The notes under the pieces: model-generated
Told to the model about the DNA's origin: nothing
The model's database searches: none
Seen by the model: the letters and a program-made list of their open reading frames with translations, nothing else
Assembly: GCA_045599245.1 (NCBI GenBank)
Contig: JAZRVP010000002.1
Coordinates: 4,488-68,487, forward strand
Length of the DNA stretch: 64,000 nt
Origin: Myxococcota bacterium
GTDB taxonomy: Bacteria; Myxococcota_A; Bradymonadia; UBA4248
Direction: 5' to 3'
Translations under genes and position numbers: made by a program
Shown: piece by piece, positions 604 through 41,847 of the stretch
How the letters are laid out: each line of letters opens with the position of its first letter
Numbering within the stretch: the first letter of the stretch is position 1

Positions 604-3240
604 TTACATCGTTGCAATTACGATCGAGTGATCTTTTACGCCATACGTGCCTGACGTCTTGTTGCTGCCGGACAGCCACACATTATTCGTCGTATTGGCA
701 TTGATACCCTCACCTTTCAGGTATTCATCCGAGTCATAATACCGTTGTGTATCGAGAAGAATCGTCCATTCTCCCTCGGGAAGATGGAACGTTTTGTCGC
801 CGTATTCCATGTTGATCATCACATACAGAGCTTTTGTCTTGTCTGTCGCTGGATAATACATGCCCACCGATTTGCTCTCCCAGCAGCCGACTTCGACATT
901 TTCACACCCATCCGGCCACCACCATTGAACCGACCCGGTGTATTCACTTGGAGCAAGGAATTCTTTGTATTGCTTGCGGATTTTAATCACTTCACGAACG
1001 AAATCGTGCATTCTCACGTTCTCAGGCCGCGAAAGCCAATCACCCCATCTAAACCAGTTCCATTCGTTATCGGCACTGTCTGAATAGGCATCGTTGTTGC
1101 CGTACTGCGATCTCATATACTCATCTCCACCAAGAATTAACGGCGTTCCCGGTGTCATCAGCAAAAACGTAAACGCATTGCGGATCATCTGACGTTTCAG
1201 CTCTTCATGATAGGAATCAATGCAAGCGCCCTGGTTGTCGATATTTTCAATGCACGTCCTTTCACATTCCTCTTTTCTGTCACCCCAGTCTTTGCATTTG
1301 TTATAACAATAATCGCATTCTCCCTTATAACAGTCTCGCTGACACCAGTTATGGGAACGGTTATCCGTCGATCCGTTGTCCGTTTTGCAAAATGCATTGT
1401 AAGGCTGATCACAGCAGATTTGATTGAGTACACTGCAGCCGTTTTGTTTCTCCCAATAGGTCATCACGTCATACAGCGTAAAACCGTCATGAACCGTGAT
1501 CACATTCACGGAATGATACGGTTTTCGGCCATTGCTCGACTGAAACATATTGCTCGAACCCGTCAGGATATTCCCCATATCGACCGTTCGCTGCCAATCC
1601 GGAGAAAGATTCTCGGTTTTATTGAGTTTGACATCGTTATTGATGAAATCACGAACCATATCGCGGAAACGGCCGTTCCATTCACCCCATCCTTTCGTGT
1701 CGTCTTTGGTCGATTTCGGGAAACAGCCATTGACGTAATAACCGCCCCACGGTTCGGCGACAAAACGCGTATGATACTTGTTCAAGACTTCGTCTTCGAT
1801 GATCTCCTGAAGGACTGTCGTTCCCGTGTTGTCAAACCAGTATTTGTTGTCGTAACCGGCATCGCCATAGTCTTTGGTATCACCGTCGTCCGTGACCTGC
1901 TCTTCATGGACGCCAAGTGCCGTTGCAAGGTCGAAACGGAACCCATCGACGTGCATTTCTTCAACCCAGAATCGCAGGTTATCGAGGATCAGACGTTTGC
2001 CAGGCGTATTGTTGCAGCGGAACTGGTTGCCGACACCCGGTTCATCGAGATAACTCTGATTTCTCACGCCGCTCGTATCTTTCTTCAGGTGATAATATTC
2101 TTTGTTGTCAAGCCCTCGGAACGAATACAAAGTCAGAGCCGTTCTGTCGTCAAAATCTTTTTGTGCCCCGTACGAATTGGCCGGATCCTGGACTTTGCTT
2201 CGCCACAAACCGCCTTCACCCGTATGGTTATAGACGACGTCCAATATGACTTCGATGCCGTTCTGATGCAGCTTATCGACCATTTCTTTGAACTCGTCGT
2301 GAACACCGTTCGTCTTGCTCTGATTAATGCTCGTTGCAAAACGCTGTTCCGGGGCAAAGAAAGCAATCGTGTTATAACCCCAGTAACCGCCGTCATCCGG
2401 CTTTTCTGCCACCGGAAGCAGCTCGAGTGCGGTCACGCCGAGATCCTTCAGATAACCAGCCTTTTCACCGATGCCCTTCCAGGTTCCACGATTCTGAACA
2501 TCGTCGAGTGCCCGCATAGTGAACCCTTTGGGATGGGCTTCGTAATAAATGACGTCGTTCTGGGCATGCCCCTCAAAGGCATCGCCTTTCATGCGGTTGG
2601 CACGCCAGACTGCTTCGTTTTCACTCCACTGATACTCGCTCTTGATGACAACCGATTTCGCAGCCCCTTTCCAGTCCGAAATGCCTCGCGCCGAACCTGA
2701 CGCCGGATTGCCTCCGCTGTACCAGTCAAAATCGTGACTAATGCGGCGCGCATACGGATCGAGCAGAAGTTTGTTCGGATTGTACCGGTTGCCTTCCTCG
2801 TCACAGTCCGTGATGTAGCCTTCCGTCGTCCCCGGCTTAAATTTCTCTGTGTACGGCCAGTTCGGACCAAACGCGATATACCCGTAATGCGTCCCCACTC
2901 CGATGCCATACACAAACTGCGTCCAAATCCCGCTCGCTTCATCCTTCGTCATCGGTATCCGCATAACAGGAAGATCCGTATCCGGGTTGTTCGAATCAAA
3001 TATCAAAACTTCGACGCGCGTCGCATGCTTCGCATAAACGGCAAAATTGACCCCCTTGTCGATGATCGTCGGACCAAGATGATCGAACAGCGCATCCCCT
3101 TTCACCCCCTCCAAAGACGGGGCAATTGCCGACGATTCGTACACGTGATGACTGCTCGTTTCATCACAGGATATCCCCATGGCACCAGACAATACCAGTG
3201 AGGCGGCTAATAATACTTTTCCCAAAAAAGCATGTTTCAT
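604..3240 (-). CDS. GH13 glycogen-debranching enzyme / isoamylase (GlgX-type) lipoprotein with Cys-rich insertion
   Basis: ORF 604..3291. The likely start is MKHAFLGKVLLAASLVLSGAMGISC at 3240 (signal peptide + Cys). It has an N-terminal CBM48/E-set-like segment (VNFAVYAKHATRVEVLIFD...). GH13 conserved regions are DVVYNHTGEG, GFRFDLATALG, AEPWG, ITVHDGFTL. Confidence 0.85.
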   Translation of the reverse strand: MKHAFLGKVLLAASLVLSGAMGISCDETSSHHVYESSAIAPSLEGVKGDALFDHLGPTIIDKGVNFAVYAKHATRVEVLIFDSNNPDTDLPVMRIPMTKDEASGIWTQFVYGIGVGTHYGYIAFGPNWPYTEKFKPGTTEGYITDCDEEGNRYNPNKLLLDPYARRISHDFDWYSGGNPASGSARGISDWKGAAKSVVIKSEYQWSENEAVWRANRMKGDAFEGHAQNDVIYYEAHPKGFTMRALDDVQNRGTWKGIGEKAGYLKDLGVTALELLPVAEKPDDGGYWGYNTIAFFAPEQRFATSINQSKTNGVHDEFKEMVDKLHQNGIEVILDVVYNHTGEGGLWRSKVQDPANSYGAQKDFDDRTALTLYSFRGLDNKEYYHLKKDTSGVRNQSYLDEPGVGNQFRCNNTPGKRLILDNLRFWVEEMHVDGFRFDLATALGVHEEQVTDDGDTKDYGDAGYDNKYWFDNTGTTVLQEIIEDEVLNKYHTRFVAEPWGGYYVNGCFPKSTKDDTKGWGEWNGRFRDMVRDFINNDVKLNKTENLSPDWQRTVDMGNILTGSSNMFQSSNGRKPYHSVNVITVHDGFTLYDVMTYWEKQNGCSVLNQICCDQPYNAFCKTDNGSTDNRSHNWCQRDCYKGECDYCYNKCKDWGDRKEECERTCIENIDNQGACIDSYHEELKRQMIRNAFTFLLMTPGTPLILGGDEYMRSQYGNNDAYSDSADNEWNWFRWGDWLSRPENVRMHDFVREVIKIRKQYKEFLAPSEYTGSVQWWWPDGCENVEVGCWESKSVGMYYPATDKTKALYVMINMEYGDKTFHLPEGEWTILLDTQRYYDSDEYLKGEGINANTTNNVWLSGSNKTSGTYGVKDHSIVIATM

Positions 3241-3253
3241 TGGACTGTCCTTA

Positions 3254-5671
3254 TTATTTTGCTTTCCAGATGATGATCTGACGATCACCACTGAGTGTTA
3301 TCGTTGTCGTTTCTGAAATGCTCCGCGTTTCATCCAAAAGATCGACCCAGCCGTTCTGCCCCACTGTGACGCCATGCTCCGTAAGGACATAAGTCTGGTC
3401 ATCATCTCTGTCACTGATCCCCACAAGGATTGACTCCGTCCCGTCACTCACGACATACATGAAGGATCGTTCATAGGCATCCACAACCTGAATCCTGCCC
3501 CGTCTAAAGGCCGGATGTTTGTGGCGAAGCGTTCCAAGAGTCTGAACATGCGCCAGCGTCTGCTTCTGCAATTCATTGAGTGCCCCGTCAAACTCCATCA
3601 TGCGGCGATTGTCCGGATCATTGGCCCCTTCAAGCCCGTATTCATCGCCGTAATAAAGCATCGGTATTCCCGGCGTCGTGAGCAAAAATGTCCACGCCAG
3701 CTTGAGCTGATGATAGGCCCATGCATCCTGAACTTCACTGTTGTTTCCGTACTTTTCCTCGCTGTCGTGATGAATATGAGATATCGCTCTGGCAACATCG
3801 TGATTGCCAAGAAACGTGCTCATCAGCGCATCGCCGTACACATTTTCGTTGTCCAGAATATGATCCTTCAAATTATAAAATAGACCATTGCCGTTCATGA
3901 TCGTGTCTCGAAGCGAATTATAGAGCGGGAAATCAAACTGCCCGTGAAGCATATCGTCCCCGATATACTGCTTGATCTTGTCCTTCCCGTCGAACGTCTC
4001 ACCAACGATATAAAACGTCACTCCGGTTTTCCTGAACAAGTCATCGATACCGGCACGCAAATCACGAATAAACTGTATCGGCATGTGCTTGACGGCATCC
4101 AGTCGGAACCCGTCGATATCCGTTTCCTGGATCAGCCACCGTGCATGGTCAACCACAAATTCCCTCACCTCCGGGATCTCAAAATTGAAGTCCGGAAGAT
4201 TGTCACTAAACCAGCACGTCTCCGGTATCCTGTCCCAATTTTTCTGCGACAGCTTTCCATTTTCTGTCGGCCCTTCGCAAAGAACCGAATCGCGGTTGGC
4301 AACATCCACATAATTAAACCATTCCGGATGCTGCAAATATACGGGACTGTCATCCGCCACGTGGTTGACCGCAAAATCGACAAGCACTCGCATGCCCCTG
4401 TCATGACACGCCTTCACGAGCGACTTGAGCTCGTCCATCGTCCCGAAATGCGGCTCGATCGGCGTGATGAGAACCCCATTGGACGATGAATTGGCATACA
4501 TCGAGGCCGTCTTTTCCGAATACCCCGTCGTCACTGGCCAGTACGAGTGATACGCACACGACTGCCCCAACGGTTTCTGCGTGTTCATGCTCACCGACGA
4601 GAGCCACAAGGTATTCACCCCAAGGCGTTCAAAATATCCATCCTCAACCCTGGCCTTCAAACCGGCAAAATCCCCTCCCTGCCAGTCATACGTGATGCCA
4701 AGCTTGCCGTCATTCGCCGTATTCCCATTGTTGAAGCGATCGATAAAGGCAAAATACAGAACCGCATCCTTCCAGCTAAATTCCGTTTCTTCATTCCAGA
4801 CCGGAACAAACAGAGAAGCTGCCTCAGCCCCGTTGGACGTTTTCAAACTTACAACATAGCTATTTTTCTTCTCCGTCCCAACGTTTTCACTGAAGGAAAG
4901 CTCCTTTCCGCTCTGCGTTTTGACGATCCGGTCGCCTTTTTTGACGACGATTTCGGGACTCTCCGCCAGCTGATACATATCGTCCAGAGTCACAGAAAAC
5001 GACACGCTGCCTTCTGAAACAACCGGTTTTCCCGAAAGAACCAGCTTCGGCTTCACGGCATCCCCACAACTCAGTGCACGAATGCTCAAATTCTCGCCGT
5101 TATCATTGCCGGACGTCTTCCAGCCTCCATCCCCCCACGATGCCACATAAAATTTGTACCCATACGTTCCCGGCTTGAGAAGGAATGAACCGTCAAATAC
5201 GCCATCCGATGTTTCCGTCAGCTGATACTCTCTGTGCTGCCAGCCGTCGAATTCTCCCGTGACAAAAACCTTCTGCCCCTTCGCCTCCGGATTCTCATAG
5301 TGGAATCTGGAATAGCATGCTTCAACCGCCTCACACACACCGGCATTGTCGACATAACCCAGTTCACAGCCGCAAACCGCCTTGTCTCCCTCAACACGGC
5401 ATGTCTGATTAGGCTCCGTACACATCCCGACACAAACGCTTTGCGCCACACACTGTCCGCCCTGTTCCGAATATCCGGTATCACACACAGTGCACGCCCC
5501 ATCGGCATCCGTCGTATATCCCTTTTCACACTGGCAGCGCTCCATTGTCACGTTCATATAACAGCTTCCATGACCACACGCCTTGCTGCACATCGTATAG
5601 GAATCATGACTGTCCTCACAGCCATTCAACACCACTGCGCCAAGCCCTAAAATCCACCACAGTTTCCGCAT
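3254..5671 (-). CDS. GH13 alpha-amylase lipoprotein with N-terminal EGF-like Cys-rich module and CBM48/CBM20-like starch-binding domain
   Basis: ORF 3254..5695. The start is MRKLWWILGLGAVVLNGC at 5671 (lipobox). GH13 regions are VDFAVNH, GFRLDAVKHM, IVGETFDG, FLGNHDVARA. The CBM-like stretch is KVFVTGEFDGWQ...YGYKFYV. The upstream gene lies 13 nt away on the same strand. Confidence 0.85.
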   Translation of the reverse strand: MRKLWWILGLGAVVLNGCEDSHDSYTMCSKACGHGSCYMNVTMERCQCEKGYTTDADGACTVCDTGYSEQGGQCVAQSVCVGMCTEPNQTCRVEGDKAVCGCELGYVDNAGVCEAVEACYSRFHYENPEAKGQKVFVTGEFDGWQHREYQLTETSDGVFDGSFLLKPGTYGYKFYVASWGDGGWKTSGNDNGENLSIRALSCGDAVKPKLVLSGKPVVSEGSVSFSVTLDDMYQLAESPEIVVKKGDRIVKTQSGKELSFSENVGTEKKNSYVVSLKTSNGAEAASLFVPVWNEETEFSWKDAVLYFAFIDRFNNGNTANDGKLGITYDWQGGDFAGLKARVEDGYFERLGVNTLWLSSVSMNTQKPLGQSCAYHSYWPVTTGYSEKTASMYANSSSNGVLITPIEPHFGTMDELKSLVKACHDRGMRVLVDFAVNHVADDSPVYLQHPEWFNYVDVANRDSVLCEGPTENGKLSQKNWDRIPETCWFSDNLPDFNFEIPEVREFVVDHARWLIQETDIDGFRLDAVKHMPIQFIRDLRAGIDDLFRKTGVTFYIVGETFDGKDKIKQYIGDDMLHGQFDFPLYNSLRDTIMNGNGLFYNLKDHILDNENVYGDALMSTFLGNHDVARAISHIHHDSEEKYGNNSEVQDAWAYHQLKLAWTFLLTTPGIPMLYYGDEYGLEGANDPDNRRMMEFDGALNELQKQTLAHVQTLGTLRHKHPAFRRGRIQVVDAYERSFMYVVSDGTESILVGISDRDDDQTYVLTEHGVTVGQNGWVDLLDETRSISETTTITLSGDRQIIIWKAK

Positions 5672-5862
5672 GAATTCATCCTCCGAGCAGAACATACCAA
5701 TCTCATATTGCCTTATAACTTATTTATGCTCAAATTGGTAATTTGTAATTGACCCCAACGCACACACTCAACTCGATTCGACAATTTCTTTTCTCATCCC
5801 GATTCTATGCAGCCGTGACACATCCCAAAGCCCCCATCTCGATTCCATTTTGCCCTTTTTTG

Positions 5863-6155: not shown

Positions 6156-9100
6156 ATGAAAAAATACATCTTTTTATGCGCAGTATTAAGTCTCGGACTT
6201 GTCGGATGCGGCGATGACTCAAACAACACGTCAGACCCCGTCGAAACTTCTCAATGCGGCAACTCAAAAGTCGAAAACGACGAAGCCTGTGATGACGGAA
6301 ACACAAACGCCGATGACGGCTGTTCTGCCGACTGCTCCCAGGTCGAAGACGGCTGGACATGCCCGAAAGAGGGCGGAAAATGCACGAAAAAAGATTCAGA
6401 ACAGGATCCGCCACTCGACGACGACGCCAAATGCGGCGACGGAAAAGTTACCGGCACAGAAGCCTGTGATGACAGCAACACCGATGACGGCGACGGATGC
6501 ACCGCTGACTGCTCAAAAATCGAAGATGGCTGGACATGCCCAAAAGAGGGCGGAAAATGCGCCAAATCCTCCCAATGCGGCAACAAATCAATTGAAGGCG
6601 ATGAAGCCTGTGATGACGGCAACACCGATGACGGAGACGGATGTGCCGCCGACTGCTCAAAAATTGAAGACAACTATCACTGTCCAACCCCCGGTTATCC
6701 ATGCATCCCTAATTCATGCGGCGATGGCATCACCGATACTTCAGCCGGTGAAGACTGCGACGCTGGCGATGAGAACATCGACTATGGCGATGAGAACGCC
6801 TGTTCGGAAAGCTGCCACCCTGCCCATTACTGCGGCGATGGTCTTCTCGATCAAATCGACATCGACAACGGCGAGGAATGCGATGCCGGTTCAGACACTT
6901 CCACTGAATACAACGGCTGCACATACGACTGCATGAGAAATAATTATTGCGGCGATGGCATCATTCAGTCCGCGAACGAACAGTGCGATGACGGAAACGA
7001 AGACGATGGGGACGGGTGTTCCTCAAGCTGCAAAATAGAACCGAATTTCACCTGCATCACTCAGGACGGAAAAAGCGTCTGCAAGTCCCTTTTGTGCGGA
7101 AATGGAAAAATCGACGAAGATACCGCTGAAACCTGTGACGACGGCAACCGTAACAATGGTGACGGTTGCTCCATGATATGCCTCGTCGAACACACTTTCC
7201 GATGTACCACCGACGAAAATACAGGAACATCCAAATGTGAAAGTACATGCGGCGACGGCATTGTCGATAAAGACACCGGTGAAGCCTGCGACGATGGAAA
7301 TACAAACGACGGCGATGGCTGTTCTTCACAATGCACGCTTGACCCCGGCTATGTCTGCAACGGCACACACTGTTTCGCCAGAGCCTGCGGTGACGGCATC
7401 GTCGCCGGACAGGAAGAATGTGACGATAAAAATACCGACTCCGGTGACGGCTGTTCAAAATTCTGCAAACGCGAAGAAAATTATCATTGCGACAAAGCGG
7501 GAGAACTCTGCCAGCTGGATGTCTGCGGCGACGGCCTCGTAACCGGTGACGAAACTTGTGACGAAGGCCATACCGATCATCCCGAGAACAAAACCGATGG
7601 CTGCCTCAATAGTAAGGTTCAGATGGGCTGGAAATGCGACACGGCAGGCACATCCTGTGTCTCCGCAGTCTGCGGAAACGGCATTCTTGAAGGCGCCGAA
7701 ACCTGTGAAATCCCTGACGCTGATCCCTCCGGTTGCTGCTTAGGCTGCGTTATTCAGCCATTCTGCAAGTGTGATACTGATGGTAAAAACTGCGAAAAAG
7801 GTTCTTGCGGCAATGGCAGGCTCGAAGCCGGTGAACAATGCGATGATGGCAATCTCACTGCCGGTGACGGCTGCGATCCCGTCTGTCGCATTGAGTCCAT
7901 CTTTGAATGCACCCGCGACGACGTAAACGGAACGGCTCAATGCCGCCCTGTGTGCGGCGACGGCGTTACCCTCTGGGACCTCGGCCCCGATGGCAAACCG
8001 TTCGAAGAATGCGACGACGGCAATCTCATCAACGGCGACGGCTGTTCAAGCGACTGCAAAATTGAAACTGGCTTCAGCTGCACGGAATTCGACACTTCCA
8101 CCCTCCCACCAACCCTTAACCTGCCAGTCACATACCGCGACTTCAAAGGACGCGGTGACCGCCGCTCCGGCGCTCAGACCGCAGACGCCGTTAACGGATA
8201 CATGGGCACAAACACATACCCCGCTGACTGCAAACCTACCCCTCTTAACGGCGACGGACATCCCGACTTCGGCGTCACTTCTTATGGCGAACTCCAGCAG
8301 GGAAACGTCCTGAACACCCTCGACAAGGACGGAAAACCCGTTCGAAGCGACCTGCGCCTGCGTTCCGCCTACTATGCCTGCAAGGAATCATTCCATGACT
8401 GGTACCGCGACCGCGAAGGCGTCAACTATCCCGTCAAAACTCACATCCCGGTCAACCTCGTCTCCGGTACCAAAAAATACGAGTTCGCAAACTCGGATTT
8501 CCACCCCATCAAAAATGATGGTTTCAACCGCCCCGGTTCCCCAAGCCCCGGCAACGCCGTCGGTTACATGTTCACTTCAGAGCTCAAAACCTATTTCAAA
8601 TACAACGGCAACGAAAGCCTCTCCTTCTACGGAGACGACGATGTCTGGATCTTCATCAATGGCAAACTCGCTGTCGATATTGGCGGCTGCCACGGCTCTC
8701 TGACAGGCACTCTGCAGCTCGACGACAAACGCGGCATCGGCACCGTTCACGTCAACGACCTCAATGGACATGACCACCCTTCCAATAACGTCCAGCTCGA
8801 CATGTATCCCGGCGGCATCTACGAAATGGCTCTCTTCCATGCCGAACGCTGCCAGGGCGGTTCCGCCTTCAAATTCACAATCGACAACTTTGTCAACACG
8901 GGTTCAAGTACATGCCAGTCCAATTGCGGTGACGGCTTCGTTCGCGGCGCTGAAGAATGCGATTATGTGACGAACAATCTCGATAACGTCGAAGAACAGC
9001 ATGCCAACGGATGTAACCACTGCAAAATCGCCCCATGGTGCGGTAATGGCAAGATCGAAGCCGGTGAAGCCTGTGATCCCGGTGCCGAGGAAACGGACTG

Positions 9101-9656
9101 GTGTTTTGGTCCCGGCAGTGAAAAGCCTTGCCAGCTCAAGACTTGCGGCAACGGCACGTTTGAACCCGAACACGAACAGTGCGACAAATCAGCTCCGGAA
9201 ACGGACGAAAATAAACACGAAAACTGCTCGGATATCTGCCGATTTGTGGGCTGCGGCGACGGCATCCTGCAGCCTGGCGAGGATTGTGATGACGGCAACC
9301 AGTCAGATGATGATATGTGTACAAGAAAATGTACAATTCCTATCTGCGGTGACGGCATCGTTTCCCCATCCATTGGCGAGGTCTGTGATGACGGCATAAA
9401 CGACGGAAGCTATGGCGGATGCGGCCTCGGGTGTACATATCAGACGCCCAAATGCGGCGACGGCATCATCGATGGCACACACGGCGAAGAATGCGATGAC
9501 GGCGAAGAAAACAACGTCGGCGGTTACGGCAAATGCAAAAAAGACTGTAAACTCGACGAACACTGCGGCGACGGCATCCTTCAGGAAGCCTTTGAACAGT
9601 GCGACCCCGGTTTAACCGCCGATTGCACATCAGCCTGTGAACACAGAATCAATTAA
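6156..9656 (+). CDS. Cys-rich repeat (CGDG..E.CDDGN..DGDGCS..C type) surface lipoprotein with central fibro-slime/PA14-like domain
   Basis: Lipoprotein signal MKKYIFLCAVLSLGLVGC. About 25 repeats of CGDGxxxxxEECDDGNxxxGDGCSxxC (Myxococcus cysteine-rich repeat type). The central segment ~8110..8910 (...GYMFTSELKTYFKYNGNESLSFYGDDDVWIFINGKLAVDIGGCHG...) matches the PA14-like fibro-slime domain architecture. Alternate-frame ORFs inside it are artefacts of the repeats. Confidence 0.85.
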   Translation: MKKYIFLCAVLSLGLVGCGDDSNNTSDPVETSQCGNSKVENDEACDDGNTNADDGCSADCSQVEDGWTCPKEGGKCTKKDSEQDPPLDDDAKCGDGKVTGTEACDDSNTDDGDGCTADCSKIEDGWTCPKEGGKCAKSSQCGNKSIEGDEACDDGNTDDGDGCAADCSKIEDNYHCPTPGYPCIPNSCGDGITDTSAGEDCDAGDENIDYGDENACSESCHPAHYCGDGLLDQIDIDNGEECDAGSDTSTEYNGCTYDCMRNNYCGDGIIQSANEQCDDGNEDDGDGCSSSCKIEPNFTCITQDGKSVCKSLLCGNGKIDEDTAETCDDGNRNNGDGCSMICLVEHTFRCTTDENTGTSKCESTCGDGIVDKDTGEACDDGNTNDGDGCSSQCTLDPGYVCNGTHCFARACGDGIVAGQEECDDKNTDSGDGCSKFCKREENYHCDKAGELCQLDVCGDGLVTGDETCDEGHTDHPENKTDGCLNSKVQMGWKCDTAGTSCVSAVCGNGILEGAETCEIPDADPSGCCLGCVIQPFCKCDTDGKNCEKGSCGNGRLEAGEQCDDGNLTAGDGCDPVCRIESIFECTRDDVNGTAQCRPVCGDGVTLWDLGPDGKPFEECDDGNLINGDGCSSDCKIETGFSCTEFDTSTLPPTLNLPVTYRDFKGRGDRRSGAQTADAVNGYMGTNTYPADCKPTPLNGDGHPDFGVTSYGELQQGNVLNTLDKDGKPVRSDLRLRSAYYACKESFHDWYRDREGVNYPVKTHIPVNLVSGTKKYEFANSDFHPIKNDGFNRPGSPSPGNAVGYMFTSELKTYFKYNGNESLSFYGDDDVWIFINGKLAVDIGGCHGSLTGTLQLDDKRGIGTVHVNDLNGHDHPSNNVQLDMYPGGIYEMALFHAERCQGGSAFKFTIDNFVNTGSSTCQSNCGDGFVRGAEECDYVTNNLDNVEEQHANGCNHCKIAPWCGNGKIEAGEACDPGAEETDWCFGPGSEKPCQLKTCGNGTFEPEHEQCDKSAPETDENKHENCSDICRFVGCGDGILQPGEDCDDGNQSDDDMCTRKCTIPICGDGIVSPSIGEVCDDGINDGSYGGCGLGCTYQTPKCGDGIIDGTHGEECDDGEENNVGGYGKCKKDCKLDEHCGDGILQEAFEQCDPGLTADCTSACEHRIN

Positions 9657-16951: not shown

Positions 16952-17029
16952 CGTATATACTCCGAAACAGTTCGGTCAGAGCAGAGGCAGAACAAAAAAA
17001 AGCACATCAAGAAATGATGTGCTTTACAA

Positions 17030-17102
17030 CAGGGGTGGAAGGACTCGAACCCTCGGCCCACGGCTTTGGAGGCCGTTGCTCTACCAACTGAGCTACGCCC
17101 CT
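17030..17102 (-). tRNA. tRNA-Trp (anticodon CCA), no encoded CCA tail
   Basis: The minus-strand read AGGGGCG-UA-GCUC-AGUUGGUA-GAGC-A-ACGGC-CUCCAAA-GCCGU-GGGCC-GAGGG-UUCGAGU-CCUUC-CACCCCU-G gives a cloverleaf with U8, A14, G18G19, U33, A37 and a T-loop GTTCGAGTCC. It closely resembles canonical bacterial tRNA-Trp. There is one C6-A67 mismatch in the acceptor stem. Confidence 0.8.
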
Positions 17103-17194
17103 ATCGGACGAGAAAAGATGATGCCACAACTGAAGACTGAAAGCCAGCAAAAAAAGAAAAAAGTTCAGAATAAAGTTACAGCTCAGTCTGGGCT

Positions 17195-17284
17195 CTGCCC
17201 CGAACCCCGCTGGGGCTTTGCCCGATTCCGAAAAGCAGTTGCCATTCGTGCATATCTGCCCCGAACCCCGCTGGGGCTCTGCCC
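17195..17284 (+). repeat. two tandem copies of the CTGCCCCGAACCCCGCTGGGGCT(T/C)TGCCC motif (a third, CTGCCCCCGAACCCCGCC, at 22031..22048)
   Basis: Seen directly at 17195..17223 and 17256..17284. Each unit contains a cccc-gct-gggg mini-hairpin. Confidence 0.6.
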
Positions 17285-17292
17285 CTTTCCTC

Positions 17293-17499: not shown

Positions 17500-17607
17500 G
17501 GCGTGTCTGAGAAGTAACGATTTGGCGACCAAACCTACATGTGGTTTTATTACATTATTTTAAGTCTAAATACGCCAAAAGCGAGATAAAACCTAGATAA
17601 TTTGCAA

Positions 17608-17716
17608 ATGAGGGAAGAGGGATTATAAGTCGCGGAGTTGAGAACAGCCAGAAGGGTTGTGAACTTAGTCAAGGAAGACGGGATATTATCCCGGTTTCAT
17701 CAGGAAAAGAGGCAAT
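17608..17716 (+). promoter_or_regulatory. GGA-rich csrA leader (candidate CsrA autoregulatory / titration region)
   Basis: Six GGA motifs lie in ~100 nt upstream of the csrA start: gagGGAag, agagGGAtt, cgcGGAgtt, caaGGAaga, acgGGAtat, tcaGGAaaa. The last (tcaGGAaaa) adjoins the SD aagagg. Confidence 0.5.
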
Positions 17717-17941
17717 ATGCTGACATTAACGCGCAAACCTGAAGAGACAATTGTCATAGGAGACGGGCCGGAACGGATCGAAGTGATTGTGAAAGAGATC
17801 AGACGCAATCAGGTTCGGCTAGGGATAGTGGCCCCTGACAATGTGAGGATATTCAGAAAAGAGTTGATAGATCGCGAGGATGAAGAACGCGAGGAATCCG
17901 TGGACGTGACGTCAAGAGAAGAGGGCACACCGAAAAGATAA
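17717..17941 (+). CDS. csrA: carbon storage regulator CsrA (RNA-binding translational regulator) with acidic C-terminal extension
   Basis: MLTLTRKPEETIVIGDGPERIEVIVKEIRRNQVRLGIVAPDNVRIFRKEL matches the CsrA signature (MLxLTRK.GE...IGD......G.QV(R)(I/L)G(I)(D/V)AP..V.I.R.E). The SD is aagagg. Confidence 0.85.
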   Translation: MLTLTRKPEETIVIGDGPERIEVIVKEIRRNQVRLGIVAPDNVRIFRKELIDREDEEREESVDVTSREEGTPKR

Positions 17942-18077
17942 AGTTTGACGCAATAACAGGATAGGTGTTAGATAAAGAGACTAGGTGTAAAGAAGCACCA
18001 TTTGTATAGTTGGAAGAGATTTTCGCAAGAGAAGCTTTCAGCAGATTTTTTAAGTATTTTGATGAGGAGTCGCATCC

Positions 18078-19832
18078 ATGATTCAGGCCTTCGTATCGCT
18101 CAAGCCGCAGCAACCATCGCGAACGGAGTCCGGAATGCGGAGTTTTTTTGAAGCTCTGCAGGGAGCTGTTTTCAGTCAACCCACGATATTCCGGACCAAT
18201 GCGGATGCATCAATCCGACCATACTCGCTTGACGCAGTGTGTGAAGCTGCATTAAATCCGGGCTGCAAGTTTGTCGTTTTGAGAGCAGAATGCGAAAAAT
18301 TCTGGCAATGTACCTTCCTTCTTCCGGACAAGCAGGGAATGGGGGCATTATTTTTCGATCTTCAACGCCAGGAAAATCCGCGACGTCTCTCGCCAGACAG
18401 CCTGATAGAGATGTTCAAGAAGCTCTATCTTTCTCTTCAGCCGCGTCTTATCCGCATCGGCGATTCAGAAGCAAGAGAGAAGCTCAAGAGCCGTCACGGT
18501 CTGGTAATGATGCCTGGTTTGGGACGTATTGAGTGGCTTCAGATCGTTTCGCGAGAAGTTTATGGCGACATTTATAACTCATCAGAGCTCATTGCATCGC
18601 CAGGCTTTTCGACCGAAGTTTGGGAAGACGGTGCTCTCTTTATGCGAGTTTATGACGATCCCAATGACTGGGATCTCGAAGACAATATTTCTCGCGCCAA
18701 CTTCGTTCCCGGTTTTCTCGCAGGTATTGCCAAGATTTCTGACAGCGAAAAACAGAAAGAGACGCTGCGCGATCTTGAAAAAATCTGGACGCGTGCTGAA
18801 AAGACGGCTGAAAAAGCTTACGAAGTTCTCGATGCAGACCCGAACGCCAAGAAAGATACAGGCGTCAAGGTAAAAGAAGAAAAACAAGTGGTCGATGAGA
18901 CACCGCTTGTGAGCGAAGCTGCTGCCGAAGAAGGCGATGATGCCAAACTGGCTATCGTCAAGAAGAGACTCGAAGCCGATTATAAGATCACCGATATCGT
19001 TAAAGCCGGTCAGGAAGGCATTTGTACACTCTTCAAAGTCAAAGCCGAAAGAAGACCTGTCTTCTACGCAACCTATCAGGATATCGATCGCAAAGTCTTC
19101 ATCCTTACCGATATTGAAGACCTTGGCCGCTTCCTCGCCATTAACGACTGCGCTATCAAACCCGAGTGCTTTGACAAAATTAAATCACTCACAAAAAAAT
19201 ACTATCATCCCGACTATCAGCTGCTTGATTCTCTCGATGAACTGCCCGATACAGTCATTCGCGATCGCAGAATGCCCGATATGCGCGCAGAATTTAAGCC
19301 AGCCGCCGTTGAAAATATTGACGGAACACTTTCTCTCACATTCTGGTTCTATAAACCCGAACTTCTCGGTCTTGAAACCATTACATTTACACAAATGGAT
19401 GGCTGGCCCATGCAGCTCAACGCCAAAGTCCAGTGTACGGATATGGAAAATGAACCGGAAGTCAAGCCTGACCCCGTTCAGGAAGTCAAAGCTGAACCGG
19501 CAAAAGTCGAAGAGCCTGCAAAAGCTGAAGAACCTGCAAAAGAAGATGAAAAGGCAAGTGAAGGAGAAAGCCCGGTCTTCAATCTCGTCGACGACAATAA
19601 ACCTAAAGCCAAGAGAAAATCCGCTCAGGCAGAAGAAGAGGATGAAGTTCCTGAAAAAGCCGATGACAAAGGCGGCTTAAGCACCGGCGCAAAAGCTGGT
19701 ATTGCGGCAGTCTTCATCATTATCTTGATTGCTATTGTACTCTATGCTCTGGGTGTATTTGGTGGTGGTCAGGCAGACAACTCTTCAGTGCCGTCCGAAC
19801 CATCGAATGCGGCTGAACAGCCTGCCGAATAA
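18078..19832 (+). CDS. hypothetical protein with C-terminal transmembrane anchor, acidic EPAK-type low-complexity linker
   Basis: ATG at 18078 with gaggag SD. A single C-terminal TM helix (GIAAVFIIILIAIVLYALGVF) follows a KVEEPAKAEEPAKEDEK linker. No recognisable domain. Confidence 0.7.
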   Translation: MIQAFVSLKPQQPSRTESGMRSFFEALQGAVFSQPTIFRTNADASIRPYSLDAVCEAALNPGCKFVVLRAECEKFWQCTFLLPDKQGMGALFFDLQRQENPRRLSPDSLIEMFKKLYLSLQPRLIRIGDSEAREKLKSRHGLVMMPGLGRIEWLQIVSREVYGDIYNSSELIASPGFSTEVWEDGALFMRVYDDPNDWDLEDNISRANFVPGFLAGIAKISDSEKQKETLRDLEKIWTRAEKTAEKAYEVLDADPNAKKDTGVKVKEEKQVVDETPLVSEAAAEEGDDAKLAIVKKRLEADYKITDIVKAGQEGICTLFKVKAERRPVFYATYQDIDRKVFILTDIEDLGRFLAINDCAIKPECFDKIKSLTKKYYHPDYQLLDSLDELPDTVIRDRRMPDMRAEFKPAAVENIDGTLSLTFWFYKPELLGLETITFTQMDGWPMQLNAKVQCTDMENEPEVKPDPVQEVKAEPAKVEEPAKAEEPAKEDEKASEGESPVFNLVDDNKPKAKRKSAQAEEEDEVPEKADDKGGLSTGAKAGIAAVFIIILIAIVLYALGVFGGGQADNSSVPSEPSNAAEQPAE

Positions 19833-19932: not shown

Positions 19933-20601
19933 ATGGGTTCATTAGAAGGCGGCCTCACTTTTAAAACTTTTTACGTCGAGGGCGAGCCACCCAACGATTT
20001 TCAGGAAGCCTATCTCCACAACCTGCAAAGCCATTTTTTTGAACCACTCAGTCCTGTTGGTGAAGAAGAACGTTCCGTGGGATGGGTTCCGACTCAAGAT
20101 CCCATTGCAGAAGAATTCAGACGTGATCACGTTTTTTTCAATCAGTACATCGTCTTCTCAATGAGAATCGACAAATGGGCTTTGCCGGCACCATGGGTGA
20201 AAGCCATGACACGGCAGGCCATTGCCGAAAGACTCCCCGAACTGACGGCAGAAGAAGCTCAAAAACAAAAAGATGACGGCAAACTTCGTCCAACAGCAAA
20301 ACTCTCCAAGAGAGAAAAAGATAAAATCAAACTCGAAGTCATCACCGATATTAAGCATAAAATTCTTCCCGCGATGAAAATCATCGATGTTGTCTGGAAC
20401 ATTTCGGAATGCACCGTTCGGTTCTGGTCCACATCAAACGCGGTTTGTGATGAATTTACTGACCTTTTTGAAGCAACTTTTGGCCTGACACTTAATGCCG
20501 ATTCGCCATTTCTCATGGCGCAACATTTGGGCATCTCGGAAAAATTACTCGATGAAATGGTCGATGAAGAGCCCTGGCACCCGATTTTCGAAGAAGATTA
20601 A
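19933..20601 (+). CDS. RdgC-like recombination-associated protein, N-terminal and central part
   Basis: Architecture resembles RdgC as recalled: the SVGWVP region, KWALPAPWVK vs RdgC KILPSPVIK, and KREKDKIKLEV vs KKTEKDSLKDEV. It ends with TAA overlapping the SD of the next ORF. Confidence 0.6.
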   Translation: MGSLEGGLTFKTFYVEGEPPNDFQEAYLHNLQSHFFEPLSPVGEEERSVGWVPTQDPIAEEFRRDHVFFNQYIVFSMRIDKWALPAPWVKAMTRQAIAERLPELTAEEAQKQKDDGKLRPTAKLSKREKDKIKLEVITDIKHKILPAMKIIDVVWNISECTVRFWSTSNAVCDEFTDLFEATFGLTLNADSPFLMAQHLGISEKLLDEMVDEEPWHPIFEED

Positions 20602-20613
20602 GGAGAATTCACC

Positions 20614-21141
20614 ATGGACATGTTTGAAAAAATCGAGCGAACCCGTCACTTTGGTGAACTCTTTCTGATGTGGCTCTGGTACCATTCAGAAATTGATGAC
20701 ACCATTTTTTATCTCAGCGACGGCAGTGTACTCACACTCGCGATAGACAATCAAATCACACTGGAAGCCAAACTGACCGAAGCTGAAAAAACGGTCCTTT
20801 CGGGCGGTGCACCGGCCGACAGCCGTGAAGCCTACGAAGCACTCAGACAGGGAAAAGTCGTTTCTCAGGCTAAAATTCGTCTTCAAAGAGATGAAAAAGA
20901 ATGGATTTTCTGCCTTACCGGAGCCACGCTTGACATTTCCGGACTCAAAATTCCTGCCCTCATGACAAAAGCTGACGACGACAAACTTTATGAACGACAG
21001 GGACTTATCGAGGAAATTGATGGTCTGATTCGTGGACTGTTCGAAAAATTCCTCTCCATCCGCCTCTCCCATGACAACTGGAAAACAGAATACGATAACA
21101 TCTGTGACTGGATTCTGCGCAAATCACGGGGCGAAGAATAA
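20614..21141 (+). CDS. RdgC-like C-terminal domain protein (separate, translationally coupled ORF)
   Basis: GKVVSQAKIRLQRDEKEWIFCLTGATLDISGLK resembles RdgC's [29 protein letters not shown]. The start lies 13 nt after the upstream stop, with aaggag overlapping that stop. Confidence 0.55.
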   Translation: MDMFEKIERTRHFGELFLMWLWYHSEIDDTIFYLSDGSVLTLAIDNQITLEAKLTEAEKTVLSGGAPADSREAYEALRQGKVVSQAKIRLQRDEKEWIFCLTGATLDISGLKIPALMTKADDDKLYERQGLIEEIDGLIRGLFEKFLSIRLSHDNWKTEYDNICDWILRKSRGEE

Positions 21142-34683: not shown

Positions 34684-34951
34684 TGAGCCTTTAAAAGAGA
34701 GAGGGAAAAGGGAGGAAATGCCAGAGAGCGGGTGGGGCGTCTATGTCCTTCGGGCATACGACGACTGTTCCTCGGCTATTTCCCGGTGGTCAATACGCCT
34801 CGGAAAGGGTATGATGATAGCGTATCTTGAGAGCAAAAAAAGCACAATATGTGCAAAAGTGGCGTCTGAGACGGCTTGCGTATAAACCAAAGACAGAGTA
34901 AAGTAAGACGGTTTATGGTCTGCGCAAAGCGCATATTAAGGAAGGAACAAT

Positions 34952-37615: not shown

Positions 37616-38334
37616 TTACATCATGCGAAGACATGCATCCTGTTCATCCACACCATTGCCTTCAATGCAAATGAACTCACAAGGTACTTCGCTGAATTGT
37701 TCGTTTTCGTCACAAACGAGAAGAATATTCTCGGTCAAACATTTTGCTTCACCCCAAAAGCATTTTTTAGTGATGCATTGATTTCCTTTTGAATTGAATT
37801 TGTATTCACTGGTACAAGTGATTTTGCACGTCCCATCAGCGAGACATTTTCCGGAAGCCACGCCTTCGCCTTGTGTACAATCGATTTCCAGTTCACCGCA
37901 TTTGTAATCACAACGGGAAGGCAAGTATTATTCGAAGAGAGGGCATATCCATCCTCACAGGTTGCGATTTTACAGGTTCCATCGGACTGGCAAGAAGCTG
38001 ATTGAACACAATCACCGGCCATGCAATCGATGCAGCTGTCACCGCAGCAATGTGCTGTCCCCATTTTAATGCATTCAAAACTGCCATTGACTTCACGAAC
38101 GAAATCGAGTGACTCCGGACAATAGCCATTTTTCAGGGATTTTTCGGCGTTTTTGGTATCGTATTCACATTTTGAACTGTCAGGATTTCGAAGACAGGAT
38201 TCAAAAACAGCCGTGCATGTCCCCGATTTTCCTTCCGGAGGACAAGGAAGTCCATTCTAGGAATCATCCCCACTGCAACCGGAAAATGCCATAAATAACG
38301 CGAGCCCCCCGAAACATTTGAATACAGTTTTCAT
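37616..38334 (-). pseudogene. Cys-rich lipoprotein gene disrupted by an in-frame TAG and a frameshift
   Basis: Minus-strand ATG at 38334 gives MKTVFKCFGGLALFMAFSGCSGDDS and then TAG (plus coordinates 38257-38259). The same frame continues Cys-rich to 37735. Near 37925-37935 the Cys-rich reading shifts frame (..SSNNTCLP / (L)PSRCDYKCGELEID..) and continues to 37616. Three track ORFs (37616..37924, 37735..38064, 37908..38129) are fragments of this gene. Confidence 0.5.
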
Positions 38335-38343
38335 ATCAACCTC

Positions 38344-38380
38344 AAACAAAAAAGTCCCAGGACACAATGGCCAGGGACTT
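38344..38380 (-). terminator. Rho-independent terminator of the 38413..41847 gene
   Basis: On the minus strand: agtccctgg-ccattgtgt-cctgggact followed by T6. Confidence 0.65.
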
Positions 38381-38412: not shown

Positions 38413-41400
38413 TTATTTGCAATAAGAAAACGTCACGCCGCCCGACGTTTCGGTGACGCAAGCGTTGTTGCATCCCATGGAATGAGCGGCGGCATCTGTT
38501 GTATTGTTGTTTTGCCAATAAAGGACGTGGAGCGTATTGCCGTCACACGTGCCAAGTGTAGAGACAGGCTTTGTTGTAGAGTCAGAGAATATGAAGTTGC
38601 CAGCAGATTTGTTGCAAACGGCACGTGCAACACCATTGGAATTGACGACAGCGCAAGTACCGCCGGCCGTGGCGCAATCCATTTCGGCATAGACATTTCC
38701 GCCTTCACCGGAGTTATAAGTGGGATCGTAGAAGCAGTTCTGGGCTTTAGTTCCACTGCAGGTAGCAGAAACAGCCGCGCAGGAAGCGAAGCCGCAAGAC
38801 CCGTTTGTACAAGTTCCACCGCCGTTAAGACCGCAGTTCATATAATCGAAAACGATATGATTATTGTGACCAGCCGTTTTATCGACTCGACAGGAAATGG
38901 AGTTACCATTTTCACAGATACCGGACTGTCTCAAAACACCGTATTTTTCGACACCTTTATAATCGGTGCCTAATTCACATTTACCAATGTATTGAATGCC
39001 GTCCCATGTCGAACACCAGGTAACATTATTCGCAACATCCGTCGCGTTGCAAATGCTGTAGAAATTGGTTTCACCTTTAATGGTTCCACAGAAGTATTTG
39101 CTTGGATCGTTATAATAAACGAATTCAATGGTTTTGGTGTCTCTATCGCAGGATTCGAGATAAATTCTGCCGTTGTCTTCGTGGCAAACATTCTTGAACG
39201 TAGCGGGAACACAGGCCTTTCCGGCTCTGGATTCACAACGTCCATCCACGCAAGTGGATTGATAATCGCAAGCCATGGATTTTTTGGAGCCATCGCCGCT
39301 GTAATCGCAATAGATTAAATTACCATTCTCATCACAAGAAGGTTTAAAATCCTTGCCGCATTTATCGACGCAACCCTCGCCTTCGACGCATTTTTCGGTT
39401 GTTGATGGGCAGGTCACATCTTTATATTTTTTCGTTGTCGGATCGCAAATGTGAGCCGTGATGTTACTGCCACTGCACGTCGGGGTAGTTGTAACAGGAT
39501 CGCATTCTGCACAAATACCGTCGAGGCAAAGGCTTGGACACGAATCGACTTTTGCGACCTGGCCGTTCTGACAATAGATGCTGGTCTTTCCATCCTGACA
39601 TTTCTGACCATTGAGAAGGCCATCACACCGTTTGTCGACACAATTTCCTTCGTAGCAAACCTCAGTATCGGTGCATTTATTTTCCTTTTTGAGACCGGGA
39701 ACTGCACAAACCTGAACGGCAGAACGATCAGCAGAGCAGACTGCGGGTTGAGAAGGATCGCATTCGGGAACGAAGACGCATTTATTTTCTTTGCATTCGT
39801 AGTGTTCAAGCGCGCAATCAGCATTTGTCGAGCAAGTGGTTGAACAAGCATTGCCCTCGCAATGATAGCCGGTCGGACAATCCGTTTTTTCGATTTCATT
39901 CTTGTCATTGCAAGAGAAAAGCGCGTTATCTGTACAGTTCAAAGTATATTTTGCGGGATCGCAGGCGACGCATTGTCCATCGAGGCAGACGGCTTTATCA
40001 CCCGAGCAAGCTTCCTGTGCAGAGATATGCCCATCGACACAGGTGAGAGGTTTATTGTCACTATTGCAGCCTGGGACAAATGAATCGGGATTGCATTCGG
40101 CGCAAACGCCGTTGAAACATACCGGGAGATCGCCGGAGCATTCACTGACAGCAACTTTATAATTCTCACCGTCGAGTTTGCACTCAAGAATTTTGCCCTC
40201 GGTCGTACATTTGGGCGAGAAAGTATCGGGCTGACAAGGATCACCCTCTTTTGCGTCATCGACACAATCACCGGCGACACAATGCTGATTGGCATCACAG
40301 GCTTTTTTCTCGACTGTACTGCCTTCACAAACGAGCTTGTTGAAATCACCGCTGCATGAGGCAACAAAAGAAGCGGGATCACATTTCTCGGCAATGCATT
40401 GTCCAGCCTGACAAATCTGGGCACCGCAATCAAATTTAGTCACGACGCCGTCTTGAGAGCAAATATACGAGCTGTTGCCATCAATGCATTGAGGAACAAA
40501 GGATGCCGGGTCACAAGCATCACCTTCGTTGATATTGTCATAACAAATGCCATCCGTACAATGCTGATTTGCCGCGCAATCATACTTGGCGAGATAACCA
40601 AATTCACATTTAACGACAGCCGCGCCATCACAAGAAGCCGAACCGGCAGTTGACATGTTACATGTCGTAGCAGTCGAAGCATCAACACATGCACCGGCAA
40701 CACAAACCTCTGAATCGACTTTGCAATATTTGGAGTGCCATGTATCGTCTTTACAAATGCGAACAACATTTGCAGAAACGCAATAATCACCGCCGCTTGT
40801 GCAGGCTTCGCCAGGTTTCTGGCAGATACCGCCCTCACAAATCTCCCCCGTATCACAGCTGGATGGTGTCTTTACGCCTGTCGGGCCGCAAATTGTTACG
40901 GTACTTTCTTCCTGACAAACCGGAGTGAATTTATCGACATCACAGGAACCGCTGACTGTGCACGTTCCATTGATACATTCCGTTCCCTCGACGCAATCAA
41001 TACGTTCAACGACGCCAATATCACTGCATCTCTCGAGCTGACCATCGACGCATCTGGGTTTAAAATCCGCCTGAGAGCAAACGTCTGTTACGCAGGCTTT
41101 GTCTTTGCAGACATTACTGTTGCAAATTTTCGTTCGGATTTTCCCATTTTCACAATAAAATTGAGAAGTTCCATCGAGTGTACATTCCATGAACCCTTCA
41201 TCGCATTCGTCGGAGCAGGCGCCGTTTCTACATACCTGTTCGCCATCGCAATACATGGGGGTTTCATATCCATCGATGCACTGAATAATCGTTCCATTGA
41301 TACCGCATACCGGTGAATAGGATGCATCACACGGTTTAGCGGCGCCACAAACGCCGTTGAAACAAACCTCGCCATCGGCACAAGGATGACTGACGACATA

Positions 41401-41847
41401 TCCGCCCATACAGTGAAGCATTGTATGGGGATCGCGGCACTGTTCTTTATAGGTATTGTCACAAGTCGTCATACTTTCATCGCGGCAGTATCCCTGATGA
41501 CAGACATTGCCTTTTTCACAAGGCTCACTCACTGTCATACCGAGAGCATTGCAAATAAAGTGTGCATTATCGCCATCACAAGTCATGACATGAGTTGACG
41601 GCGTACATTTTGCGGAGCATTCACCGAGGTAACAAGTTGTTCCGGGCAAACAAGCCGTGGGTTCATAAAAGCCATTTTTACAAACGAGGACATCGCCGGT
41701 TTGGCTGCAAGTTTTTTCGCCGTCAACCGTACATGTCTGCCGTCCGGCCAGACCGGCGATACCGTCATCAGAGCAACCATAACCTGCCGCGAGAGCCATT
41801 GCAGCGAGAACGACAAATACATTTTTACGATTCATATTTAACCTCAC
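38413..41847 (-). CDS. very large Cys-rich surface lipoprotein (high Cys content; different repeat type from the CGDG proteins)
   Basis: Signal/lipobox MNRKNVFVVLAAMALAAGYGC (the alternative ATG at 41835 is the more likely start). Cys is spaced every ~6-10 residues over >1000 aa in EGF-like C..G.C..G.C patterns. No homologous known domain recognised. Confidence 0.8.
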   Translation of the reverse strand: MRLNMNRKNVFVVLAAMALAAGYGCSDDGIAGLAGRQTCTVDGEKTCSQTGDVLVCKNGFYEPTACLPGTTCYLGECSAKCTPSTHVMTCDGDNAHFICNALGMTVSEPCEKGNVCHQGYCRDESMTTCDNTYKEQCRDPHTMLHCMGGYVVSHPCADGEVCFNGVCGAAKPCDASYSPVCGINGTIIQCIDGYETPMYCDGEQVCRNGACSDECDEGFMECTLDGTSQFYCENGKIRTKICNSNVCKDKACVTDVCSQADFKPRCVDGQLERCSDIGVVERIDCVEGTECINGTCTVSGSCDVDKFTPVCQEESTVTICGPTGVKTPSSCDTGEICEGGICQKPGEACTSGGDYCVSANVVRICKDDTWHSKYCKVDSEVCVAGACVDASTATTCNMSTAGSASCDGAAVVKCEFGYLAKYDCAANQHCTDGICYDNINEGDACDPASFVPQCIDGNSSYICSQDGVVTKFDCGAQICQAGQCIAEKCDPASFVASCSGDFNKLVCEGSTVEKKACDANQHCVAGDCVDDAKEGDPCQPDTFSPKCTTEGKILECKLDGENYKVAVSECSGDLPVCFNGVCAECNPDSFVPGCNSDNKPLTCVDGHISAQEACSGDKAVCLDGQCVACDPAKYTLNCTDNALFSCNDKNEIEKTDCPTGYHCEGNACSTTCSTNADCALEHYECKENKCVFVPECDPSQPAVCSADRSAVQVCAVPGLKKENKCTDTEVCYEGNCVDKRCDGLLNGQKCQDGKTSIYCQNGQVAKVDSCPSLCLDGICAECDPVTTTPTCSGSNITAHICDPTTKKYKDVTCPSTTEKCVEGEGCVDKCGKDFKPSCDENGNLIYCDYSGDGSKKSMACDYQSTCVDGRCESRAGKACVPATFKNVCHEDNGRIYLESCDRDTKTIEFVYYNDPSKYFCGTIKGETNFYSICNATDVANNVTWCSTWDGIQYIGKCELGTDYKGVEKYGVLRQSGICENGNSISCRVDKTAGHNNHIVFDYMNCGLNGGGTCTNGSCGFASCAAVSATCSGTKAQNCFYDPTYNSGEGGNVYAEMDCATAGGTCAVVNSNGVARAVCNKSAGNFIFSDSTTKPVSTLGTCDGNTLHVLYWQNNNTTDAAAHSMGCNNACVTETSGGVTFSYCK

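Follow-up and report, generated by a model that had tools for sequence, protein, structure and literature searches.

A conserved candidate CsrA recognition element in the csrA leader of a Myxococcota/Bradymonadia-like gut bacterium suggests translational autoregulation

The csrA gene in the window, as we term the whole 64-kb stretch of DNA analysed here, is preceded by a leader in which a 12-nt element, GUCAAGGAAGAC, lies near the ribosome-binding site, and it seems probable, at roughly 60%, that CsrA represses its own translation via this leader, as it does in the case of Escherichia coli csrA. A first-pass annotation of the same DNA had proposed a candidate autoregulatory leader because of the many GGA triplets upstream of the gene. 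This idea survives by virtue of the consensus element, which is conserved in 14 of 16 leaders, and not by virtue of the GGA count as such.

The gene concerned is the following.

17717-17941, plus strand: csrA coding sequence, assigned by its match to PF02599 (8.8e-19) and by alignment to 1Y00, 2BTI, and 2JPP.

This open reading frame, for which no in-frame start codon was found upstream of 17717, encodes a protein of 74 amino acids with the N-terminus MLTLTRK. Residues 1-53 are covered by the match to the CsrA family in Pfam (67.7 bits at a cutoff of 27), and residues 1-60 can be aligned with 1Y00 and also with 2BTI and 2JPP, the CsrA/RsmA structures from E. coli, Yersinia, and Pseudomonas. 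When compared with 1Y00, the protein retains M1-L2-T3-L4-T5-R6, and R47 is the equivalent of R44, while a three-residue insertion (G17-P18-E19) is present in comparison to E. coli CsrA. L4 and R44 have been singled out as critical for RNA binding by CsrA (PMC7652899). The signature that had been called clear at first sight is therefore confirmed by the Pfam match and by the retention of L4 and of the R44 equivalent, and the gene is a normal CsrA gene of a gut Myxococcota/Bradymonadia-like bacterium. Relatives of this CsrA are encoded in assemblies labelled Myxococcota, Myxococcales, Bradymonadales, Bradymonadia, or "Proteobacteria," and those closest to it, 75-87% identical, originate from gut samples, ruminant and other, in genomes assembled from metagenomes. 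The Fibrobacterota, in which the first-pass annotation had placed this DNA, are not borne out by these Myxococcota/Bradymonadia relatives. A DUF4215 Cys-rich repeat protein encoded in the window also fits a Myxococcota/Bradymonadia origin. The window codes for two very large Cys-rich repeat secreted proteins (6156-9656, plus strand, and 38413-41847, minus strand), one with five DUF4215 repeats and a PA14 domain and the other of 1144 amino acids and with no Pfam match. A full-text search on CsrA and Bradymonadales found no paper joining the two and, going by this search, CsrA is so far unstudied in the Myxococcota/Bradymonadia.

Upstream regions of the gut-clade csrA orthologues (16 non-redundant loci) have in common a block TTTTTG(C/T)C(A/G)-N17-TATAAG, and the spacing of exactly 17 nt to TATAAG is encountered in at least seven orthologues, including those of loci L001, L003, L004, L006, L007, and L037. 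In the window, this block provides the elements of a predicted promoter.

17602-17607, plus strand: predicted -35 element of the csrA promoter, TTGCAA, followed by a 16-nt spacer; assigned by conservation and geometry.
17608-17623, plus strand: promoter spacer ATGAGGGAAGAGGGAT between the conserved -35 and -10 elements, with the GGAs 17613 and 17620 inside.
17624-17629, plus strand: predicted -10 element TATAAG; TATAAG, TATAAC, or TATATC in orthologues.
17634-17637, plus strand: predicted transcription start region, 5-8 nt downstream of the -10 element, straddled by the GGA at 17634-17636.

In the register of the orthologues, the -35 element reads TTTGCA at 17601-17606 with a 17-nt spacer, and in a 10-sequence alignment the T, A, and T columns of the -10 element are invariant or nearly so. 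A consensus promoter scan made no call at this site, because the last T of the canonical element is missing from TATAAG, and it is therefore on conservation and geometry that the assignment is based. Judging from the distance to the -10 element, transcription would start at 17634-17637. The promoter is predicted to be of the sigma-70 type and csrA's own, and an additional upstream promoter is conceivable. In L006-L008, a divergent tRNA-Trp gene situated 226-270 nt from the csrA AUG also bounds the leader. The interval from tRNA-Trp (17029-17103, minus strand) to the csrA promoter contains two 36-nt direct repeats (17194-17229 and 17255-17290, plus strand), which are 92% identical, 61 nt apart, each endowed with a GC-rich hairpin GCCCCGAACCCCGCTGGGGC, and the sole copies in the window.

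GGA triplets occur upstream of csrA at six positions, 17613, 17620, 17634, 17673, 17681, and 17703, and the first-pass annotation had ascribed all six to a leader of about 110 nt that it regarded as unusually rich. The six are indeed present, and six GGA per 109 nt place this stretch in the top 0.45% among plus-strand windows; more than three GGA are found in 0 of the 39 other gene-upstream regions of the 64-kb window. On simple shuffling of the 109 nt, at least six GGA arise in 15.5% of cases, because the stretch consists of 67% purines. The raw count is real, yet partly a reflection of base composition. Furthermore, the conserved promoter lies inside the supposed leader, and the predicted transcribed leader is therefore only about 80 nt long with three GGA, a count that is equalled in 5 of the 39 other genes. 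The GGAs are thus upstream of csrA as claimed and denser than in other 5' regions over 109 nt, but their number is inflated by a purine-rich promoter spacer specific to the window and is unexceptional within the transcribed part. Among orthologues, the spacer sequence is free to vary and in most of them is not rich in GGA, and the GGAs 17613 and 17620 are probably outside the transcript made from this promoter. Of the six, the promoter spacer contains two, the predicted start region and a stem contain one each, and only two are conserved, namely 17673 within GUCAAGGAAGAC and 17703 beside the ribosome-binding site.

A local density of six GGA per 109 nt is on par with that of CsrB-type RNAs, and the leader had also been thought of as a decoy, i.e., as an RNA that, like CsrB but in cis, would draw CsrA off its other targets. 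The predicted transcript, with only three GGA of which only two are conserved, speaks against such a sponge, and a single mRNA leader, at 1:1 stoichiometry to its product, has no capacity to buffer a global regulator. No match to CsrB, RsmY, or RsmZ is offered by Rfam, which at the gathering score identifies only tRNA-Trp in the window and, at E values up to 10, only noise between 17100 and 18100. Nor is there any CsrB-like RNA in the 64-kb window, whose intergenic regions all remain at or below about three GGA per 100 nt. The decoy reading is not borne out, and we consider it hardly credible. One CsrB-like candidate with at least seven GGA (38175-38291, plus strand) was rejected, as it is the antisense of a frameshifted Cys-rich lipoprotein gene. 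This lipoprotein-like gene (37616-38367, minus strand) is distributed among three or more reading frames, with the signal peptide encoded at 38257-38367 and further open reading frames at 37908-38129, 37735-38064, and 37616-37924, and is either a pseudogene or the result of assembly frameshifts.

The upstream one of the two conserved GGAs forms part of the element on which the proposed autoregulation is mainly founded.

17668-17679, plus strand: candidate high-affinity CsrA site GUCAAGGAAGAC, recognised by consensus match, with the GGA at 17673-17675.

Within this element, UCAAGGAAGA (17669-17678) matches at 10 of 10 positions the RsmE/CsrA consensus (A/U)CANGGANG(U/A), which, as Schubert 2007 is quoted in PMC6849547, was derived from an RsmE-RNA structure. 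In GUCAAGGAAGAC, GUC and GAC are predicted to close a 6-nt loop, AAGGAA, that presents GGA 17673-17675, and presentation of GGA in a small hairpin loop is known from SELEX ligands of CsrA (PMC7652899). The strict consensus is kept in 14 of the 16 gut-clade csrA leaders, which otherwise are only about 45% identical per column, and also exists in three distant Bradymonadales-like leaders (L014, L017, and L028). Searching 312 kb of fetched loci for GTCANGGANGAC gave 12 matches, 11 of them on the sense strand of csrA leaders and located 33-85 nt upstream of csrA. The closing pair has undergone a compensatory swap from G-C to U-A in L037, and the GGA of the motif is mostly unpaired across the folds of orthologues. 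In L001 (303-366) and L002 (3937-4000), the AUG within GUCAUGGAGGAC opens an ORF of 18 codons, which stops 4 nt short of the csrA AUG. The idea of an upstream ORF was dropped because A, G, or C occupies the position in question in the window and several orthologues; as judged from these sequences, the variable N in the motif rules out a conserved upstream start codon.

The second conserved GGA is situated next to the start codon.

17702-17712, plus strand: ribosome-binding purine tract AGGAAAAGAGG, with the GGA at 17703-17705 as candidate second CsrA site.

The statement that the last GGA adjoins the Shine-Dalgarno sequence holds, since 17703 is inside AGGAAAAGAGG just before the AUG. GGA 17703-17705 begins 11 nt before the AUG and has an unpaired probability of 0.67-0.81. 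Of the 16 gut-clade leaders, 13 have CAGGA at -15 to -9, and all 25 of 25 Bradymonadales-like leaders have a Shine-Dalgarno-proximal GGA, while L001, L002, and L045 possess GGG instead of GGA at the ribosome-binding site. As GGA occurs in any good Shine-Dalgarno sequence, and any such sequence would be conserved together with its GGA, GGA 17703 does not constitute independent evidence. In eight Bradymonadales-like leaders, a hairpin with GGA in its loop, CACUC-GUGGAAAG-GAGUG or a close variant, overlaps the ribosome-binding site. The distance between the GGA of the motif and that of the ribosome-binding site amounts to 30 nt in the window and to 21-66 nt across orthologues, and the 30 nt fall inside the published range of 10-63 nt that a CsrA dimer can bridge (PMC7652899).

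Both sites are arranged in an order of elements consisting of a first hairpin (H1), the 12-nt element, a second hairpin (H2), a third hairpin in some orthologues, CAUCAGGAAAAGAGG, and the AUG.

17639-17667, plus strand: leader hairpin H1, present in the minimum-energy fold of the window; its position is kept and its sequence variable.
17679-17693, plus strand: leader hairpin H2, CGGGAUAUUAUCCCG, with the fifth GGA (17681) within the stem.

Directly 5' of the motif every orthologue has a differing hairpin, and 0-3 nt past the motif an H2-type hairpin of differing sequence begins in nearly all of them, the H2 stems being formed by GGGAU/AUCCC in the window, CCCACAG/CUGUGGG in L037, and UGCGCACA/UGUGCGCA in L006. 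Thus, the sequences of H1 and H2 are wholly different between orthologues and their positions are maintained. In per-sequence folds, these flanking hairpins are mostly more stable than shuffles (z about -1.5 to -3.0), whereas the whole leader shows no gain in stability over shuffled sequence (z = -0.6). MAFFT followed by RNAalifold on nine leader segments gave zero consensus pairs, because hairpins of unequal length and sequence were misaligned; structural conservation of the leader accordingly refers to per-sequence folds and shuffles, not to formal covariation statistics, a three-sequence seed being too thin for a covariance model. As to whether the GGAs fall in loops, the folds give a divided answer. 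GGA 17703 is predicted to be unpaired. GGA 17681, with unpaired probabilities of 0.00/0.00/0.03, is part of the H2 stem and is not kept as GGA in orthologues. The GGA of the motif at 17673 is ambiguous (0.79/0.06/0.06), as in the fold of the window it is partly paired via a weak GAA/UUC extension of H2, and the mini-stem of GUCAAGGAAGAC has only 3 bp and competes with H2 for C17679. H2 was also considered as a terminator or attenuator and rejected, for a U-tract is absent in the window and in orthologues. Likewise rejected was a long-range pairing of GUCA (17668-71) with UGAC (17721-24), seen in some minimum-energy folds, the 3' side of which is fixed by the MLTLT codons and shows no covariation in L006 or L007.

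A possible, if doubtful, alternative would be that csrA is not autoregulated by CsrA at all, that the GGA richness stems from a purine-rich promoter and leader, and that the GUCANGGANGAC element and its hairpins serve something else, for example as the target of another RNA-binding protein or of an sRNA, as an RNase processing signal, or as a ribosome standby or enhancer element. Such an explanation is in line with the 15.5% of 109-nt shuffles reaching at least six GGA, with the fact that the promoter spacer accounts for two GGAs, a stem for another, and the Shine-Dalgarno sequence itself for a further one, and with a leader GGA count that is no outlier (5 of 39 genes equal it). It also agrees with the behaviour of WCANGGANGW, which at 13 matches versus 8.5 expected is not enriched in the window overall. 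However, the element is a 10/10 match to the recognition consensus of precisely the protein that is encoded just downstream, 14 of 16 lineages have it at a distance from the ribosome-binding site that a dimer could bridge, and Rfam offers no alternative ligand.

Given the geometry known from glgC and from E. coli csrA, self-repression of translation is therefore the best reading, and we infer both the binding of CsrA to the leader and the translational repression from the sequence features described. According to this proposal, transcription of csrA from its own promoter (17602-17607/17624-17629) would give rise to the leader of about 80 nt, and a CsrA dimer would dock on the upstream element GUCAAGGAAGAC. 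The docked dimer could then reach across 30 nt to the downstream GGA of the ribosome-binding site and in this way block access of the 30S subunit, so that CsrA synthesis would be capped by negative translational autoregulation.

The neighbours of csrA are tRNA-Trp and cdd on the upstream side and, on the downstream side, a gene for which we use the designation p584.

17945-17974, plus strand: predicted separate p584 promoter, with TTGACG at 17945-17950, TG at 17966-17967, and TAGATA at 17969-17974.
18078-19832, plus strand: p584 gene for a 584-aa C-terminally membrane-anchored protein, a conserved csrA neighbour.

The description of the next gene as coding for a 584-aa tail-anchored protein is supported by an AlphaFold2 model (pLDDT 80.8), which has a membrane helix at residues 536-561 and two folded domains, 1-255 and 285-460. 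The best fold matches of p584 in the PDB are PA0821 (7DRG, E 1e-5) and the immunity protein of the PA3907-PA3908 complex (9OZ0), PA0821 and PA3908 being T6SS-associated proteins of P. aeruginosa, and no FliW fold is among its top 50 fold matches. The p584 family has 52 members, all in this clade, and no Pfam match. In every fetched locus carrying p584 the gene adjoins csrA, an adjacency that is kept down to p584 identities of 47% (L054) and 35% (L044), except in L053, where p584, the rdgC-like gene, p175, and bacA are together without csrA. It is always ahead of an RdgC-like gene (19933-20601), a 175-aa gene (20614-21141), and bacA. Right after the csrA stop, most gut-clade loci have TTTGACGC followed by (A/C)GTG-N-TA, and in the window the extended -10 promoter of p584 starts 4 nt past this stop. 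The ribosome-binding region AGGAGUCGCAUCC-AUG that precedes p584 is conserved, like its promoter, and no convincing terminator was seen between csrA and the p584 promoter. p584 is thus a conserved neighbour of csrA, and a role as its partner is putative.

The claim that no fliW-like partner is adjacent proves correct for the window and for at least 50 related loci, which have p584, or DUF4912 and GH57, beside csrA instead of fliW, and Pfam detects neither FliW nor flagellar domains among the 37 proteins of the window. Persicimonas is flagellated and Bradymonas is not (PMC7188933); flagellation is therefore mixed in the Bradymonadales, and taxonomy does not settle whether fliW is present genome-wide. 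In Bradymonadales proper (Lujinxingia and others), csrA is followed by genes for DUF4912 and a GH57 1,4-alpha-glucan branching enzyme (L020 4217-6369; L028 4204-6303), an adjacency that connects glycogen genes to the "carbon storage regulator" gene. The window itself contains, 12 kb from csrA (604-5695, minus strand), genes for two large alpha-amylase-family enzymes with CBM48 or AMPK-type glycogen-binding modules, and this pair looks like genes of glycogen or starch metabolism.

After the conserved R-x-E-[LIV], the tail of the window CsrA comprises 24 amino acids, compared to 14 in E. coli, and has 10 D/E versus 5 K/R. What had been described as an acidic C-terminal extension of about 20 residues is therefore acidic, and lineage-wide so, but exceeds the E. 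coli tail by only about 10 residues. Tails are net-negative in 38 of 40 CsrAs of the lineage, with a mean net charge of -5.6 versus +1 in E. coli; the exceptions with basic tails, L044 and L045, are both linked to p584.

CsrA might instead be controlled mainly at the protein level, with an acidic tail that autoinhibits by mimicking RNA or docks a partner, p584 in the place of FliW or CesT, and the leader in a secondary role. An argument for this is the precedent of FliW, which makes use of CsrA's extended C-terminus (PMC7652899), and one might add the net-negative tails in 38 of 40 lineage members, the persistence of the csrA-p584 adjacency at p584 identities of 35 and 47%, and the fact that locally neither fliW nor a CsrB-like RNA is seen. 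On the other hand, p584 has a conserved promoter of its own and a fold unlike that of FliW, L053 holds p584 and its rdgC-like, p175, and bacA neighbours without csrA, two p584-linked CsrAs (L044 and L045) have basic tails, and in Bradymonadales proper an acidic tail exists without p584 next door. Control mainly at the protein level thus appears unlikely. Still less probable, and in our opinion a long shot, is a new protein-level device in which the acidic tail would imitate RNA intramolecularly or serve as a docking peptide and p584 would sequester or release CsrA at the membrane. Either of these roles of the tail is speculative; if true, the tail/p584 device would represent a third class of CsrA antagonists, beside sRNA sponges and FliW/CesT.

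For the self-repressing leader that we favour, several implications can be drawn. A leader with the gammaproteobacterial consensus suggests that the RNA specificity of CsrA and the feedback by which it limits itself may both be of ancient origin and portable from phylum to phylum, and the 12-nt motif provides a handle for predicting CsrA targets in the uncultured gut predators of this clade. The question is also raised of what antagonises CsrA in this lineage. Elsewhere in the window, the leader of an 858-aa Ser/Thr kinase with a PEGA domain (34924-34951, plus strand) ends in UUAAGGAAGGAACAAU-AUG with two GGAs at the ribosome-binding site, and judging from this sequence the kinase mRNA may be a CsrA target.

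In comparison to known Csr systems, the window shares with the FliW-CsrA system of B. subtilis, Campylobacter, and Geobacter a CsrA tail longer than that of E. coli. In contrast to that system, neither the window nor any of about 50 related loci has fliW beside csrA, the tail is acidic and its sequence varies, and the closest solved structure by sequence is of the E. coli type (1Y00), not the FliW-bound Geobacillus structure 5DMB. With the sponge RNAs CsrB, CsrC, RsmY, and RsmZ, the stretch upstream of csrA has in common a high local GGA density in the raw sequence, but it is not a separate RNA, has two to three usable GGAs and no repeated hairpin units, and finds no match in Rfam.

The glgC leader of E. 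coli and the hcnA leader of P. protegens, the latter with RsmE, reportedly function as two-site clamps involving one GGA in an upstream hairpin loop and one at the Shine-Dalgarno sequence (Mercante 2009; Schubert 2007). Like these, the window has an upstream (A/U)CANGGANG(U/A) with GGA in a small loop and a second GGA at the ribosome-binding site. Unlike them, the target in the window is csrA itself, and the mini-stem of 3 bp competes with H2. The E. coli csrA leader, according to the summary of a 2011 study in PMC7652899, has four CsrA sites, one of which covers the Shine-Dalgarno sequence, and its translation is self-repressed. Its four mapped sites and five promoters contrast with two conserved candidate sites and one recognisable promoter in the window, the leaders have no sequence homology and belong to different phyla, and the window case is known from sequence alone. 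What both have in common are GGA sites in the csrA leader, one of them at the Shine-Dalgarno sequence, and a negative translational feedback, which for the window is predicted; the csrA leader described here is probably a new example of a known circuit and not a new mechanism.
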